59,042 bases of DNA from Candidatus Beckwithbacteria bacterium CG10_big_fil_rev_8_21_14_0_10_34_10. GTDB lineage: Bacteria; Patescibacteriota; Microgenomatia; UBA1400. Made by a program: the position numbers and the translations under genes. Below, in pieces: positions 7,352-12,388 of this stretch. A model generated the notes under the pieces. That model had not been told where the DNA came from. It saw only the letters and a list, made by a program, of their open reading frames with translations, and ran no database searches. Each line of letters starts with the position of its first letter. Position 1 is the first letter of the stretch. The stretch covers positions 71,565-130,606 of the forward strand of contig PEZT01000001.1 of assembly GCA_002773945.1 (NCBI GenBank), written 5' to 3'.

Positions 7352-8002
7352 ATGGATTCAATTAATATCTTTTCTTCATCTTCTAAGAAAAAAAAAGGCT
7401 CTCACCAGCCGGTTTCTTTTATTGAGGCTTTAAAAGACATTGGCTCCTCAGTTCAAAAACAAGCTAAAGATGCAACTATTGGTACTGGTAAAGCCATGGC
7501 CGACCAGCTTCTGGGCGGAAATAAGAATTCTGACCAGGTCGGTGATTCAGGCGAACTCCAACCTGAAACACCTTTTAACTTTGAAGACTATTTAAAATCC
7601 CGAGAAAAACAAATAGAACAAGTCCAAAAGCAAAAATTTGAAAGTCGAATCCAAGAAGAAAGATTAGTCTTTCACCGAAAAGAAGAAGAAGCTAAGCTAG
7701 AGATAAAAGCGGTTCAAGAAGAATTGAAAAAACTGGCTGAATCTACCGAAGGTTTATCAGTAGAAATTAAAAAAGCCACTTTTACAGCCACTGTTAATCC
7801 TGGTACTTATCATGAAAACTTTTTTAGCCGAATTAAAAGACTGATTCAACTGGCGCGGAAAAAACTGGTTGAATCTCAAACTTGGTTAGAAAGCTTTAAT
7901 TACCGATCTCAAAGAAAATCAGCTTACTGGGGTGGAGTGAAAAAATCAGGGACTAAATTTATGCTTTCTCAAGAAAGATATACCGCCACTAAAACTGGAT
8001 AA
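7352..8002 (+). CDS. CPR conserved protein (DUF5660-like)
   Basis: NPGTYHENFF and C-terminal YW..VKKSGTKFMLSQERYTAT resemble the family as recalled. Confidence 0.6.
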   Translation: MDSINIFSSSSKKKKGSHQPVSFIEALKDIGSSVQKQAKDATIGTGKAMADQLLGGNKNSDQVGDSGELQPETPFNFEDYLKSREKQIEQVQKQKFESRIQEERLVFHRKEEEAKLEIKAVQEELKKLAESTEGLSVEIKKATFTATVNPGTYHENFFSRIKRLIQLARKKLVESQTWLESFNYRSQRKSAYWGGVKKSGTKFMLSQERYTATKTG

Positions 8003-8009
8003 TTGCCTC

Positions 8010-8038
8010 TTGACAGAAAAAGGATAAATGTCTAGTAT
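8010..8038 (+). promoter_or_regulatory. Sigma70-type promoter for leader/attenuator 1
   Basis: TTGACA (8010-8015), 17 bp, TAGTAT (8033-8038); ATG at 8048. Confidence 0.7.
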
Positions 8039-8047
8039 ATTAAAGTT

Positions 8048-8143
8048 ATGAATAACATTCTCTTATCAACCCAAATTATTAGAAACTTTCATGTCCTTTT
8101 CCTTATTTGGAAGAAAGGCAATGGTTTGGGAGGATTAAAGTAA
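8048..8143 (+). CDS. Putative attenuation leader peptide, 31 aa, Ile/Leu-rich
   Basis: MNNILLSTQIIRNFHVLFLIWKKGNGLGGLK*; its 3' part contains GTTTGGGAGG, the exact complement of 8171-8180. Confidence 0.65.
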   Translation: MNNILLSTQIIRNFHVLFLIWKKGNGLGGLK

Positions 8144-8167
8144 GTTAAAAACAAAAAAATATTTAGT

Positions 8168-8194
8168 AAACCTCCCAAACAAGGGAGGTTTTTT
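8168..8194 (+). terminator. Attenuator terminator 1
   Basis: AAACCTCCC-AAACAA-GGGAGGTTT followed by TTT. Confidence 0.8.
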
Positions 8195-8219
8195 AATGCC
8201 AAAAAGGAGGTGATAATTA

Positions 8220-8435
8220 ATGAATCCTCATGAAGACTATCCAAAAAAACAAAATAGCAACTTGTTCCCAGACATGGATGAAGTTGCTAGAAGATTAGGC
8301 TTTAGCTTAAGTGATCAAAGTCCAGTTATGTGTGGCCCTAATTGCGGCCAAGATTATGATCGAGTAAGTGTTGATGTTCAACCAAGGGGTGAACAATTTA
8401 ATTATGTTGGCAATGGAATACCAGACTTAGCTTAA
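8220..8435 (+). CDS. Hypothetical 71-aa protein
   Basis: Strong SD AAGGAGGTGA; lies between attenuator 1 and the M20 peptidase. Confidence 0.6.
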   Translation: MNPHEDYPKKQNSNLFPDMDEVARRLGFSLSDQSPVMCGPNCGQDYDRVSVDVQPRGEQFNYVGNGIPDLA

Positions 8436-8453
8436 ATATGATATTTTAAAATT

Positions 8454-9518
8454 ATGCTTAATATTACTAAAAATTTAATAAAGTTTGAGTCAGATAAAGA
8501 TCATCCTAAAGAAATTAAAAAGTGTTTTAACTATTCTATTAAACTGCTTTCAAAAAGTGGCTTAAAAGTAAAAACATATTCTTCTAAAGGAAAACTGTCT
8601 TTAGTGGCTGGGAAAAAGATTAAAAAACACTATCAGTATATTCTAAATGGCCATTTAGATGTGGTCCCTGGAGATTATAAGAATGCCTTTAAACCTTACC
8701 TTAAAGGAAGCCGGCTTTATGGTCGAGGCGCTTCTGATATGAAAGGGCCTGTTGGAGCCATGATTAAACTAATGTTAAATCCAGGTCTTAAAGATATTGA
8801 TCTGGGTTTAATCCTAAACACAGATGAAGAGGTTGGTGGATTTGATGGGGCAAACTACTTAGTTAACCAAGGCTATACAGCTGATTGTGTTATTGTTCCT
8901 GATGGGGGAGATAACTTTAATTTAACTTTAGCTGAAAAAGGAGTCCTTCATCTTAAAATTTTGGCTCAGGGAAAATCAGCTCATGCTAGCCGTCCCTGGG
9001 AAGGAGATAATAGTCTGGAAAAGTTATTTATAATATATGAAAAAATTAAAAGAAAGGTTCCTGATACTACTTCTTCTAATCGCTGGTTAGAAACGGTTAA
9101 TTTGGGAAAAATATCAGGGGGATTAGCAGCTAATGTTGTTCCTTCTAAGGCAGAAATGATTTTAGATTTTCGTTATCCTAAAAAGGTCCAAAGAAAGCAA
9201 ATTTTAAACCTATTAAAAAGTGTTTGTCAAAAAGAAACAGGAGTTACATTTAAGATTTTATCTGATGGTCAAACAATGAACACTTCTAAAAACAACAAGT
9301 ATATTAAAAAAATCATTAAGGTGGCAAAGGAAAATAAGGTAAGTTTGAAATTAAATAAAGATCACGGTGCTTCTGACGGTCGATTTTTTTCCGCTAAGGG
9401 AATACCTGTTATAATGTTTAAACCTACTTGCAGTTCAATCCATATAGACGATGAATGGATTGACTTAAAAAGCCTAGAAATATTTTATAGAATTTTAAAA
9501 AGGTTTATGTTAAAATAA
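8454..9518 (+). CDS. M20 family metallo-hydrolase (ArgE/DapE-like)
   Basis: GHLDVVP, LYGRGASDMKG, DEEVGG, GKSAHASRPWEG, GASDGR, H.DDEWI. Confidence 0.9.
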   Translation: MLNITKNLIKFESDKDHPKEIKKCFNYSIKLLSKSGLKVKTYSSKGKLSLVAGKKIKKHYQYILNGHLDVVPGDYKNAFKPYLKGSRLYGRGASDMKGPVGAMIKLMLNPGLKDIDLGLILNTDEEVGGFDGANYLVNQGYTADCVIVPDGGDNFNLTLAEKGVLHLKILAQGKSAHASRPWEGDNSLEKLFIIYEKIKRKVPDTTSSNRWLETVNLGKISGGLAANVVPSKAEMILDFRYPKKVQRKQILNLLKSVCQKETGVTFKILSDGQTMNTSKNNKYIKKIIKVAKENKVSLKLNKDHGASDGRFFSAKGIPVIMFKPTCSSIHIDDEWIDLKSLEIFYRILKRFMLK

Positions 9519-9523
9519 TTTAA

Positions 9524-9598
9524 ATGAAAATTACAAATAAAATTTTTTATAGCAAGTTTTTCTTTTTTAACTTCCAGAAAGAGGAGGTGATTTTGTAG
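9524..9598 (+). CDS. Phe-rich leader peptide (pheL-like), 24 aa
   Basis: MKITNKIFYSKFFFFNFQKEEVIL*: 6 Phe and 1 Tyr codons, then AGGAGGTG complementary to the terminator 5' arm. Confidence 0.78.
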   Translation: MKITNKIFYSKFFFFNFQKEEVIL

Positions 9599-9625
9599 TT
9601 TTTATAATTATTTAAAAATAGATAA

Positions 9626-9649
9626 CACCTCCTAACAAGGAGGTTTTTT
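9626..9649 (+). terminator. Attenuator terminator 2
   Basis: ACCTCCT-AACA-AGGAGGT followed by TTTTT. Confidence 0.8.
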
Positions 9650-9670
9650 ATTGCTTTAAAAGGAGTTTCT

Positions 9671-9859
9671 ATGAACGAAAAATCAGAAAATAATATTTGT
9701 CAGCTACCCTTAGAATCACAGATAAAAGAGATGGTCATTCTAATTGCCTCTACTATAGGAGGAAATCAAGAACTCGCCGAATCAGCCGCCAGAAATCTAG
9801 GCTGTTTACCGGGAGAAATAGAAAATAAAGAGCCTAATAATGGTCGTACCACATATTAA
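9671..9859 (+). CDS. Hypothetical 62-aa protein
   Basis: SD AAGGAG; overlaps the start of the dehydratase gene by 20 nt. Confidence 0.55.
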   Translation: MNEKSENNICQLPLESQIKEMVILIASTIGGNQELAESAARNLGCLPGEIENKEPNNGRTTY

Positions 9860-10412
9860 AGTTTGCTATCAAGGAATTCCTGGAGCTTATAGCCAGATAG
9901 CTATTGATAAATATTTTAAAAGAAAGGCTCTCGCTTATTCTAAAAAAGAGTTCAAGGATTTATTTAAATCTGTTTTAGAAAAAAAGTCTGATTATGCTAT
10001 GGTGCCGATAGTAAACTCTATTATTGGCCCAATTAAAAAGAATGTTAAACTAATGGCTAAATATTCTCTTCCCATTAAAGGAAAAGTTTCTCTTTATATT
10101 AACCACTGTCTTTTAGTAGTCCCAGCAAAAGGAGTTAATCCTAGTAAGCGTCTAAAAGAACTAAGGAAGGTTTACTCTCATCCAGCCGCTCTAGCCCAAT
10201 GTTATAAATTTTTTAAAACCCACCCTTGGCTAAAACCAATTAAAGCTAATGATACGGCCGGAAGTGCTAAAAAACTAGCCATCTCAAAAGACAAAAATAC
10301 CAGTGTCATAGCCAGTAGCAAAGCCGCTAAACTATATAAGCTTCAAATAATAAAAAAGAATTTAGCGGGGAAAAACAACTATACTCATTTCTTAGTTATT
10401 AGTAGAAAGTAA
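9840..10412 (+). CDS. pheA: Prephenate dehydratase catalytic domain only (no ACT domain)
   Basis: YQGIPGAYS, VPIVNSIIG, INHCLL, VYSHPAALAQC, DTAGSA, NYTHFLVI; ends right after the TRF-equivalent motif. Confidence 0.8.
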   Translation: MVVPHIKVCYQGIPGAYSQIAIDKYFKRKALAYSKKEFKDLFKSVLEKKSDYAMVPIVNSIIGPIKKNVKLMAKYSLPIKGKVSLYINHCLLVVPAKGVNPSKRLKELRKVYSHPAALAQCYKFFKTHPWLKPIKANDTAGSAKKLAISKDKNTSVIASSKAAKLYKLQIIKKNLAGKNNYTHFLVISRK

Positions 10413-10467
10413 CTGTAACAAATTGACACCGACAAACATAAATTGATAAAATAGGTTGTTGTTAAAA

Positions 10468-10544
10468 GGGCTCGTAGCTCAGTTGGCTAGAGCGTTCGCT
10501 TGACGTGCGAAAGGTCACAGGTTCGAGTCCTGTCGAGCCCACCA
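10468..10544 (+). tRNA. tRNA-Val(GAC)
   Basis: GGGCTCG/CGAGCCC acceptor, TTCGC-TTGACGT-GCGAA, encoded CCA; TTGACA...TG-a-TAAAAT promoter at 10423-10452. Confidence 0.96.
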
Positions 10545-10621
10545 ATAAAAATAAACAGCCTTAGAGATTCTTCTTTCTTTTTTTTGTGTTTACTGATAAA
10601 ATTTTTACAGGAATAATACAG

Positions 10622-12388
10622 ATGAATAAAGCTAAAAATAATTTACTTAAAACCATGCGGCATTCCTGCGAGCATATTCTTCACCAGGCAGTGGTTGAGC
10701 TTTTTCCGGGTTTAAAAAGAGCCATGGGACCGGCAACTGATGAAGGTTTTTATCTTGATTTTGACTATCAAGAAAAAATAGCTGAATCAGATTTTCCCAA
10801 AATTGAAAAAAGAATGAGGGAAATTATTAAAGCTGACTTGCCGATTATCAGAAAAGTTATTTCTCTTCCTGAAGCTAGAAAACTCTTTAAAAACAATCCA
10901 TATAAACAAGAATGGCTTTTGGAAATTGAAAAAAAAGGGGAAAAAGCGACTGTTTATTGGACAGGAAAACCTAATCTGCCTGGTTCTGATGTAGATCTTT
11001 GTAAAGGCCCTCACGTTCAATCAACTGGCAGAATCGGTCCTTTTAAACTTTTATCAGTCGCCGGCGCTTATTGGCATGGAGATGAAAAAAACAAAATGTT
11101 AACTCGAATTTATGGAACTTGCTTTAAAACAAAAAAAGATTTAGATAAATACTTATGGCAGATTGAAGAGGCCAAAAAACGAGATCATCGAGTTTTAGGT
11201 CAAAAATTAGAGTTATTTATGTTTGATGATGAAGTCGGCCAAGGTCTGCCTCTTTATCTTCCTAAAGGAGCCATGATCCGCCATTTATTAATGGATTTTG
11301 CCCTTAAAACCTATCTTAAAAATGGTTATGAACTGGTTTCTACTCCCCATATTGGTTCAGAAAGCCTCTGGCAGCGTTCTGGCCATTTGAAATTTTATGC
11401 TGAGAGTATGTATGGTCCTATGGAAGTTGAGGGCAAAAAATACCGCTTAAAACCAATGAACTGTCCTTTTCAAGTAAAAATGTATACGGCAAAAATTAGA
11501 AGCTACAAGGAATTGCCCATCAGGTGGACGGAAATGGGAACTGTTTACCGCTATGAAAAATCCGGTGAGCTCCATGGTTTAACTAGACCTCGGGGCTTTA
11601 CTCAAGATGATGCCCATATAATCTGCACTCCTAAACAACTCGAAGCAGAAATTAAAGCTGCTTTGGAAATTACTAGCTATATGTATAAAACTTTGAAAAT
11701 GGACAAACTTATCTATAAACTATCAGTCCGCGACCCTCAAAAACTTAGCAAATACTTTGGTCAAGCTCAAGATTGGAATCAAGCAGAAGAAACTTTAAAA
11801 AAAGTTTTAGTTGGCCTTGGCCACGAACATTATGAAGTTGATGTTGGTGGGGCTGTTTTTTACGCTCCAAAAATTGATATTGATGGCGTTGATTCCTTAG
11901 GAAGACGCTGGCAACTTTCTACCGTTCAAATAGATTTTAATCTGCCGGCTAAATTCCAAATGAAATACATTGATAAAGACGGCCAGGAGAAAACGCCTTT
12001 TATGATTCATCGGGCCTTACTGGGCTCAATTGAAAGGTTTTTGGGCGTTTACATTGAACATACTGCTGGCGCTTTTCCTTTATGGCTATCACCAGTTCAA
12101 GTAAAAATTATTCCTATTTCCCGGAAGCACTTAGCTTATTCTAAAAAACTTTCTGCTAGGTTAAAAGCAAACAGCATTAGAGTTGAAATTAATGATAAAG
12201 ATGCCACCATGCAGAAAAAGATTAAGGAAGCAGAAGAAGAAAAAATCCCCTATATGTTGGTTATTGGTGATAGGGAAGTAAAAGAGAACATCGTTTCTGT
12301 CAGAAAAAGAGGGAAAAAAGATTTGGAAACAATGAAGGTCGAAAAGTTTTTAAGTAAAATTAAAACAGAAATTGAAGAAAAGTCATAA
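10622..12388 (+). CDS. thrS: Threonine--tRNA ligase
   Basis: RHSCEH, DLCKGPHV, RDHRVLG, KPMNCP, FTQDDAH, HRALLGSIERF; start set to ATG 10622. Confidence 0.97.
   Translation: MNKAKNNLLKTMRHSCEHILHQAVVELFPGLKRAMGPATDEGFYLDFDYQEKIAESDFPKIEKRMREIIKADLPIIRKVISLPEARKLFKNNPYKQEWLLEIEKKGEKATVYWTGKPNLPGSDVDLCKGPHVQSTGRIGPFKLLSVAGAYWHGDEKNKMLTRIYGTCFKTKKDLDKYLWQIEEAKKRDHRVLGQKLELFMFDDEVGQGLPLYLPKGAMIRHLLMDFALKTYLKNGYELVSTPHIGSESLWQRSGHLKFYAESMYGPMEVEGKKYRLKPMNCPFQVKMYTAKIRSYKELPIRWTEMGTVYRYEKSGELHGLTRPRGFTQDDAHIICTPKQLEAEIKAALEITSYMYKTLKMDKLIYKLSVRDPQKLSKYFGQAQDWNQAEETLKKVLVGLGHEHYEVDVGGAVFYAPKIDIDGVDSLGRRWQLSTVQIDFNLPAKFQMKYIDKDGQEKTPFMIHRALLGSIERFLGVYIEHTAGAFPLWLSPVQVKIIPISRKHLAYSKKLSARLKANSIRVEINDKDATMQKKIKEAEEEKIPYMLVIGDREVKENIVSVRKRGKKDLETMKVEKFLSKIKTEIEEKS

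Follow-up and report, generated by a model that had tools for sequence, protein, structure and literature searches.

A very probable phenylalanine-sensing leader-peptide attenuator upstream of an ACT-less prephenate dehydratase gene, and related elements across an order of Patescibacteria

INTRODUCTION

In enteric bacteria, the trp, his, thr, and ilv operons are controlled by leader-peptide attenuation with cognate codons. The ermC and cat leaders sense antibiotics through the nascent peptide. The E. coli P-protein is built of chorismate mutase, prephenate dehydratase (PDT), and ACT domains. Here, we describe a locus in a 59,042-nucleotide stretch of DNA from Candidatus Beckwithbacteria (contig PEZT01000001.1), called the window below, in which a short phenylalanine (Phe)-rich open reading frame (ORF) and a candidate four-element RNA switch precede a gene for an ACT-less PDT. 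An earlier note on this DNA had proposed that the locus works by the logic of E. coli pheL attenuation.

Enteric leader-peptide attenuators are described in PMC1183508, in the portion of that paper drawn on here. According to the relevant part of Gurvich et al. (PMC3082878), pheL belongs to the gamma subdivision, and possible cases beyond the proteobacteria are few (Bacteroides, Desulfobacterium autotrophicum). In Flavobacteriaceae, structured 5′ regions of the leader-peptide type before amino acid operons, and conserved elements before pheA and hisG with no Rfam match, are reported in the section of PMC9723704 used here. Patescibacteria are presented, in the part of PMC11665869 that concerns us, as organisms of minimal biosynthesis whose own regulation is virtually unknown. 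In a literature search, no paper was returned that linked leader peptides and attenuation with this phylum under any of its names.

The locus resembles E. coli pheL-pheA and pheM-pheST (Rfam RF01859, Phe_leader) in its Phe-codon ORF, its four-segment RNA, its mutually exclusive antiterminator and U-tailed terminator, and the placement of the leader stop codon; as in pheL-pheA, the switch lies upstream of a PDT gene. Unlike pheL, the leader lacks a Shine-Dalgarno (SD) sequence and probably starts leaderless, and its stems come from a GGAGG/CCUCC module common to attenuators for other amino acids. The enzyme, unlike the E. coli P-protein, has neither a chorismate mutase nor an ACT domain.

RESULTS

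Anatomy and predicted folds of the Phe switch

We consider it very probable that charged tRNA-Phe is sensed here by a ribosome-mediated leader-peptide transcription attenuator, which controls an operon of a 62-amino-acid (62-aa) ORF and the ACT-less PDT gene. This reading rests on the sequence elements, their exclusive pairings and energies, their conservation, and the correspondence of codons to genes across the order. The features, with distances in nucleotides (nt), are as follows.

9508-9516, + strand: promoter-like extended -10 element, TGT-TAAAAT, 7 nt before the leader ATG (sequence)
9524-9598, + strand: leader peptide ORF, 24 codons, MKITNKIFYSKFFFFNFQKEEVIL, stop codon TAG at 9596-9598 (sequence, ORF list)
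9557-9574, + strand: regulatory Phe run, F12-F15, N16, F17 (TTT TTC TTT TTT AAC TTC) (sequence)
9570-9575, + strand: element 1, ACTTCC, overlapping codons N16-Q18 and pairing with GGAGGT at 9583-9588 (sequence, folds)
9582-9589, + strand: element 2, AGGAGGTG, 5′ arm of the antiterminator, with the leader stop codon 7-14 nt downstream (sequence, folds)
9626-9633, + strand: element 3, CACCTCCT, pairing with element 2 or element 4 (sequence, folds)
9638-9650, + strand: element 4, AGGAGGT (9638-9644) plus the U-tract (sequence, folds)
9671-9859, + strand: 62-aa ORF, conserved, with no Pfam family and with its own SD sequence (AAAGGAG), overlapping the PDT start by 20 nt (ORF list, Pfam)
9840-10412, + strand: ACT-less PDT-domain protein, 190 aa (PF00800, E = 8.8e-49, profile positions 1-179 of 181)

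Six of the 24 leader codons specify Phe (codons 8, 12, 13, 14, 15, and 17, five of them within codons 12 to 17), and all Cs in the Phe run fall at third codon positions. The Phe-rich ORF and the exact complementarity of element 2 to element 3, the 5′ arm of a U-tailed terminator, lie where the earlier note had placed them; that note had overlooked element 1, the 62-aa ORF, and a second attenuator at 8048-8194.

The terminator hairpin, ACCTCCT-AACA-AGGAGGT (9627-9644), has 7 base pairs (bp), including 4 GC pairs, and is followed by T6. The antiterminator joins elements 2 and 3 (9582-9589 with 9626-9633) over 8 bp of exact complement and excludes the terminator. Calculated energies were -10.4 kcal/mol for the terminator (3:4), -17.1 kcal/mol for the antiterminator (2:3, 9580-9635), and -6.7 kcal/mol for the anti-antiterminator (1:2), and element 2 is also enclosed by an AU-rich helix (9524-9537/9592-9605) that aids the 1:2 pairing. 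An unconstrained fold of 9500-9675 contained the 1:2 hairpin, the AU-rich helix, and the terminator. When a ribosome was placed on the leader and only the RNA 3′ of its footprint was folded, A-site positions F12 to F15 gave the antiterminator (-17.1 to -22.4 kcal/mol) with the terminator absent, and a ribosome at F17 or the stop codon gave the terminator. The masked folds thus switch between antiterminator and terminator as the pheL-like scheme of stalling and read-through had proposed. The locus combines a cognate codon cluster, an intrinsic terminator, an exclusive antiterminator, 1:2 pairing, and a stop codon placed so that a ribosome there covers element 2.

In the mechanism that we propose, transcription would start at or adjoining the leader AUG. 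When Phe is scarce, a ribosome would stall on codons 12 to 17 and cover element 1. Element 2 (AGGAGGUG), left exposed, could then pair with element 3 (CACCUCCU), so that no terminator would form and RNA polymerase would read on. When Phe is plentiful, a ribosome at the UAG stop codon would sit on element 2, the U-tailed 3:4 hairpin would form, and transcription would stop. Without translation, the 1:2 pairing and the AU-rich helix would hold element 2, making off the default state. Because the next ORF has a separate SD sequence, the effect in the window would fall mainly on transcription. The mechanism is classical; new would be its presence in this phylum, the recurrence of one SD/anti-SD module with many amino acids, a leader that probably starts leaderless, and the genes controlled (synthetases, salvage enzymes, and small orphan proteins, in genomes where the pathways are missing).

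The resemblance to pheL drawn in the earlier note holds for the logic of the elements and is accompanied by subthreshold scores with the Rfam Phe_leader model: 23.3 bits for 9539-9653 of the window and 41.0 bits (model positions 1-125) for the homologous region of a genome of the same family, G003 (L004 1180-1297), both below the gathering score of 55 and so outside RF01859.

Conservation of the block and the genomic background

The source genome (G000) comprises 1.03 Mb in 31 contigs and has a G+C content of 33.5%, because of which T-runs are common in it. It contains 25 ATG ORFs of 10 to 45 aa with at least 5 Phe per 7 residues, 4 of them with a terminator-like hairpin nearby. The three hairpin-bearing ORFs other than the leader were rejected as unrelated to Phe, lying antisense to genes, beside a convergent gene, and in a pyrimidine tract near a tRNA gene and a recombinase gene upstream of greA. 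This last tract (C18:4300-4560; L032 1800-2060) is long, adjoins the tRNA gene just after a large serine recombinase gene, and looks like a mobile-element integration site. Hairpins of the form CCTCC...GGAGG...TTTT occur four times in the genome; two of them have an upstream complement of at least 8 nt that includes GGAGG, and both are in this locus.

PDT genes are rare in the order, with matches in 9 of its 286 genomes (E ≤ 1e-10). In G003, whose PDT is 54% identical to that of the window, the same block runs leader, elements 1 to 4, small ORF, ACT-less PDT, and tRNA-Val. Its leader, MLNKNQNYQTFSPFYFFFFFIKRRFGSVV, carries a Phe run at the homologous position, and its element 2 (GGAGGTTTGGT) is complementary to element 3 (ACCAAACCTCC) over 11 bp. 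Element 1 of G003 (CTACCAAACC) mimics its own element 3, as ACTTCC mimics ACCTCC in the window, and where the window has T-A as the apical pair of its terminator, G003 has C-G. Energies in G003 were -15.4 kcal/mol for the terminator, -21.2 kcal/mol for the antiterminator, and -24.4 kcal/mol for the anti-antiterminator; masked folds gave the antiterminator with the A site at F14 to F19 and the terminator at F20 and at the stop codon. In a genome of another family (G176), an FFFFFF leader, MTNHKTNNNFFFFFFNSSLKEVVGI, and the switch stand directly before a 245-aa ACT-less PDT. A Phe-run leader with the switch thus precedes all three ACT-less PDT genes with a readable upstream region (window, G003, and G176), and the comparison of relatives that the earlier note had suggested finds the Phe codons kept in both.

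The same evidence bears on a simpler explanation, that the hairpin is the plain intrinsic terminator of the M20 peptidase gene upstream, with chance, in AT-rich DNA and SD-like sequence, accounting for the Phe-rich ORF and the AGGAGG ahead of the hairpin. The leader ORF does start 5 nt after the peptidase stop codon, AGGAGG is a generic ribosome-binding motif, and the 25 Phe-rich small ORFs bear out the caution of the earlier note that TTT runs are common in AT-rich DNA. That caution is overcome by context and conservation. In G003 the block of leader, switch, small ORF, and PDT lies behind a different upstream gene; the ~20 nt from the U-tract to the ribosome-binding site of the next ORF leave no room for a separate promoter; the only two hairpins with an upstream complement in the genome are both here; and codon runs fit the downstream genes over 83 loci (below). 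We give the chance explanation hardly any credence, less than any other considered here.

Aromatic leaders were absent from the upstream stretches fetched for the ACT-bearing PDT genes of G049, G063, and G008, the operon starts of G063 and G008 lying farther upstream. A metagenome scan with the ACT-less PDT alignment returned 15 loci, at most 41% identical, with the small ORF in none and a Phe-rich ORF in two. In these two (L017 1603-1659 and L022 1540-1596), a small ORF, MKNITFYFSFFYFWNATK, stands ~340 nt before a PDT match that has an ACT-length C terminus and is 41% identical to the window protein; it might be a Phe leader from a different phylum, and L017 1833-1898 gave a weak Phe_leader match (26.3 bits). 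These two loci and the Flavobacteriaceae elements, as far as the cited section describes the latter, differ from the window in belonging to another phylum, in having no GGAGG/CCUCC core among those checked, and in a PDT with an ACT-length C terminus.

The 62-aa ORF and the ACT-less PDT

The 62-aa ORF starts 20 nt after the U-tract, and G003 has a homologue at the same position. An exhaustive profile search of 1.84 billion representatives found three relatives, one of them a 65-aa protein (P0003). A search of the genome contigs with the 62-aa protein found just the G003 locus (L007, identical to L004), and a protein homologue search returned the query alone. An Atlas search gave no feature match and weak helical look-alikes on a low-confidence model. 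The idea that the 62-aa ORF and PDT are one frameshifted gene was rejected, as the overlap in different frames is kept in the window and G003. Prediction of a complex between the 62-aa protein and PDT scored 0.51 (runs of 0.15, 0.53, and 0.51; best control 0.00), with runs sharing at least 71% of contacts and a partner predicted local distance difference test (pLDDT) value of at least 59. Of 80 solved complexes, 58 attain the mark applied, as do 2 of 110 mismatched pairs; at scores of at most 0.60, it is attained by only 7 of the 80 and by both of these mismatches. At that level, the models hint that the 62-aa protein might partner PDT.

The PDT match is the sole one in the source genome (PF00800, 166.2 bits against a cutoff of 25.2). 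No ACT match (PF01842) was found at E ≤ 0.1, in agreement with the earlier note; the ORF ends 10 residues past the PDT domain, a tRNA gene comes next, and G003 is alike. The E-N-S/T and T-R-F motif residues of PDT have a catalytic role. The corresponding motifs of the window protein read PIVNS, SHPAAL, and YTHF: the Asn and Thr are kept, with Val in place of the Glu of E-N-S/T and His in place of the Arg of T-R-F. Both differences recur when the protein is compared with its best solved relative (2qmx_A, E = 1.6e-35). In an alignment (A7) of the PDTs of the window (9840-10409), L004, L081, and L006 with those of L003, L005, and L008, all four ACT-less PDTs (window, G003, G176, and G008) had lost both the ENS acidic residue and the TRF Arg, which all three ACT-bearing ones keep. 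The substitutions listed in the earlier note (ENS to VNS, HPQ to HPA, and TRF to THF) are real, its doubt about enzyme activity stands, and the ACT-less PDTs may be a distinct subtype. The Phe-specific leader argues that the window PDT serves Phe supply.

The genome search for chorismate mutase and shikimate genes that the earlier note had advised found none of chorismate mutase (CM_2), chorismate synthase, and DAHP synthase I in either G000 or G003. Each of the two genomes has a single EPSP-family match, most simply MurA, and class I/II aminotransferases are present in both.

Directly after PDT lies a tRNA-Val(GAC) gene (10423-10544) that has a strong promoter-like site to itself (TTGACA-18-TAAAAT with TG); in G003, too, PDT is followed by this tRNA. 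Next in the window is thrS, which lacks a Thr leader, unlike the ThrRS genes of three relatives described below.

Attenuation and the ACT domain

The earlier note had suggested that attenuation may replace lost allosteric control. In G002, of the same family, an operon contains genes for a PfkB kinase, DAHP synthase, PDT, chorismate mutase, and an aminotransferase, and its PDT has an ACT-length C terminus (ACT match of 20.8 bits, below the cutoff). At the head of this operon (L112 1321-1452) stand a Trp/Phe/Tyr leader, MQKSLSLGWFYSYFFNLAAEGSDGVVKS, an element 2 (GGAGGGT) complementary to ACCCTCC, and a U-tailed hairpin that abuts the first ATG. The suggestion finds no support in this comparison: since an ACT-bearing PDT operon also has an aromatic leader and switch, attenuation would be the lineage's general device and not compensation. 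In the G000 and G003 lines, an aromatic operon under attenuation may plausibly have shrunk to a remnant that holds PDT, now behind a leader for Phe alone. A PfkB-family kinase heading an aromatic operon behind an F/Y leader recurs in G176 (L080).

A family of probable attenuators across the order

A pattern search was used in place of a covariance model, since the hairpins of the sole two sequences available (window and G003) came out misaligned in MAFFT. The pattern, GGAGGT-N25-55-CCTCC-N4-10-GGAGGTTTTT, demands a U-tract of at least 5. It occurred at 83 places in 65 of the 286 genomes of the order, against 1 in a reversed control; in an even sample of the phylum, it was present in 10 of 401 genomes, and outside the order in 8 of 395. 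Most of the 83 places have a short ORF that extends into the first GGAGGT or stops just before it. An automatic pass (ATG start; stop 0 to +32 nt from the first G of element 2) found a candidate leader at 72 places and none at 11, several of which have ORFs that stop just before element 2 or start with GTG. A Pfam scan of 73 downstream ORFs (E ≤ 1e-6) assigned 28 to a family and left 45 without one. Leaders and downstream genes correspond as follows.

Thr leaders (MRLKNQITATTTNS, ...SLTTTTTTSS, ...SATTTTQLC): threonyl-tRNA synthetase (ThrRS), 3 of 3
Cys leaders (CC or CCC): PALP (cysteine-synthase-type) enzymes (3), cysteinyl-tRNA synthetase (CysRS), PIG-L deacetylase
His leaders (...HHHNH...; HHH(N)H): HisG (2)
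His/Trp/Tyr leaders (...HHxAWYY...): class I/II aminotransferases (7 scanned; 7 near-identical neighbors left unscanned)
Met leader (...MMEMMM...): S-adenosylmethionine (SAM) hydroxide adenosyltransferase
Phe/Tyr leaders: DAHP synthase, PfkB kinase
His/aromatic-rich leaders: M20 peptidases (5)
Phe leaders: PDT (3)

SAM hydroxide adenosyltransferase belongs to an enzyme family that takes its name from the cleavage of SAM. The Met-, Cys-, and Thr-leader loci include L054 (G019), L110 (G028), and L071, L072, and L078 (G146, G148, and G172), with up to six Thr codons in a row. The correspondence suggests that amino acid salvage and charging genes are under cognate-codon control. Runs of at least three identical residues in six were more frequent in the leaders than at random anchors for His (12/83 versus 7/1660), Thr (7/83 versus 12/1660), Phe (14/83 versus 50/1660), and Cys (3/83 versus 4/1660).

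The pattern demands only a 5-bp core, and the 2:3 helix is contiguous over at least 8 bp in 60 of the 83 loci. For element 2, pairing is more stable with the element 3 of the same locus than with a foreign one (-18.6 versus -15.7 kcal/mol; 0 of 5,000 permutations reach it). The contiguous extension of the helix 3′ of GGAGG is just slightly longer with the partner of the same locus than with a foreign one (means of 2.2 and 1.8 bp), and the duplex-energy test is the clearer of the two.

Like the enteric trp, his, thr, and ilv attenuators, these elements combine codons cognate to the end product with 1:2, 2:3, and 3:4 pairings, and the order has His, Thr, Cys, Met, and aromatic versions. Unlike the enteric ones, they share one core module, and their targets include ThrRS, CysRS, SAM hydroxide adenosyltransferase, M20 peptidases, and orphan small ORFs. 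Many attenuators (L043, L045, L050, L070, L093, L096, L104-L106, L108, L111, and others) precede ORFs of 50 to 180 aa, by automatic ORF calls, without a Pfam family; in L105, L106, and L108, similar leaders (...W-I/M-I/L...GG...) stand before ORFs of ~61 aa.

In 24 of the 83 elements, the ATG or GTG of an ORF of at least 45 aa lies 1 to 6 nt after GGAGGTTTTT (19 of them at +2). Judged by position, element 4 in these 24, the window not among them, is the SD sequence of the next gene, element 3 its anti-SD sequence, and element 2 an SD mimic, which would explain why the core is GGAGG/CCUCC. The arrangement recalls the ermC and cat leaders, in which stalling within a short leader ORF lets the ribosome remodel a hairpin that hides an SD sequence, and raises the alternative that the switch acts mainly on translation, with CCUCC hiding the GGAGG SD sequence until leader stalling frees it. 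The ATG of the G003 small ORF, 7 nt past the hairpin, would suit that mode as well. In the window, however, the small ORF has its own SD sequence (AAAGGAG) outside the hairpin and starts 20 nt after the U-tract, and every element has a U-tract of at least 5, a feature that the pattern required yet that fits termination. A further difference from ermC and cat is that stalling would follow codon supply and that a U-tract comes after the hairpin. Both modes are compatible; a mainly translational switch appears improbable to us, and we retain transcription attenuation for the window.

Predicted leader start sites

Across the family, 57 of 83 loci have a TATAAT-like hexamer (at least 5 of 6 matches) that ends 4 to 14 nt upstream of the leader ATG; of 2,448 random ATGs, 133 have one. 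The mode of the gap is 7, the gap found in the window; the Phe leader of G003 deviates, with TATAAT 16 nt upstream. From the position of this hexamer, the leaders are probably translated from leaderless or nearly leaderless transcripts.

Since the leader is only predicted to be translated and no SD sequence precedes it, the switch might in principle be thrown by a protein, by an uncharged tRNA in the manner of a T-box, or by a small-molecule riboswitch, with the leader ORF incidental. In an Rfam scan of 8000-12000, however, tRNA alone scored above threshold, with no curated T-box or other riboswitch family matched, and no T-box or riboswitch was found even at E ≤ 10 in 9480-9680. Nor would such a switch explain why, in locus after locus, short ORFs with cognate runs end at or just after element 2. 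We regard this explanation as very improbable and keep to a ribosome translating the leader.

A probable second attenuator in the window

Upstream of the Phe switch, the window contains a second element of the same design, with the following features.

8010-8038, + strand: promoter-like TTGACA-17-TAGTAT, 9 nt before the second leader ATG
8048-8194, + strand: second attenuator (sequence, pattern search, folds)
8048-8143, + strand: its leader ORF, MNNILLSTQIIRNFHVLFLIWKKGNGLGGLK
8124-8133, + strand: its element 2, GTTTGGGAGG
8171-8180, + strand: its element 3, CCTCCCAAAC
8168-8191, + strand: its terminator, followed by Us
8220-8435, + strand: 71-aa ORF behind the second attenuator, no Pfam family
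8454-9518, + strand: M20 peptidase gene behind the second attenuator, stop codon 5 nt before the Phe leader ATG

The second leader is rich in Ile, Leu, Phe, His, and Trp and has a homologue in G003 (L004 679-865). A weak Rfam Phe_leader match at 8141-8197 is the terminator of this attenuator. M20 peptidase genes follow His/aromatic-rich leaders in five relatives.

DISCUSSION

The earlier note had ventured that a regulator-poor lineage senses Phe-tRNA by attenuation. The comparison of sequences supports this more broadly than was claimed, as leader codon runs match downstream genes across the 83 loci. We think it likely that the whole order runs its amino acid economy through one modular, probably leaderless attenuator (GGAGG-CCUCC-GGAGG-U-tract) with interchangeable codon sensors (Phe, Tyr/Trp, His, Cys, Thr, Met, and hydrophobic), which would control tRNA synthetases, salvage enzymes, and orphan small proteins.

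Several points weigh against these conclusions. The 1:2 hairpin of the window is weak (-6.7 kcal/mol), and under a cruder masking that allowed pairing across the ribosome, which we regard as sterically unrealistic, the terminator persisted. The window antiterminator is essentially the 8-bp core common to the family, and in the cross-locus duplex test its own partner ranked 21 of 80, and that of G176 61 of 80. Phe-PDT examples number just three, and both Phe_leader scores fall short of the gathering score. At the leader start, a search for an SD sequence before the ATG found none in the window, and the -35 element matches at 3 of 6 positions; we infer leader translation, the start site, and the response to Phe. 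A search for RNA sequencing runs over 9300-10500 listed none. Across the family, the choice of leader and downstream ORF in the 83 loci was automatic and noisy, 45 of the scanned downstream ORFs fall outside Pfam families, and the sister loci are related, so that the counts and permutation tests overstate independence. Lastly, the PDT has exchanged two motif residues, and the genes that could supply its substrate had no match in G000 or G003.

That last point is also a puzzle: a probably Phe-regulated, ACT-less PDT-like enzyme with a possible small partner is kept in a genome that lacks chorismate mutase, chorismate synthase, and DAHP synthase. If the family is as we propose, the leader code would be a built-in annotation of the amino acid served by unknown downstream genes. 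In the window, it would assign the 62-aa protein and the motif-altered ACT-less PDT to Phe and the 71-aa protein and the M20 peptidase to hydrophobic or aromatic amino acids. Cells of this order would then monitor individual charged tRNAs by a cheap, cis-acting, protein-free device in wide use. For the genetic systems under development in Patescibacteria, such a device would offer native, portable switches that respond to amino acids, and it would be the first general regulatory principle for these organisms.

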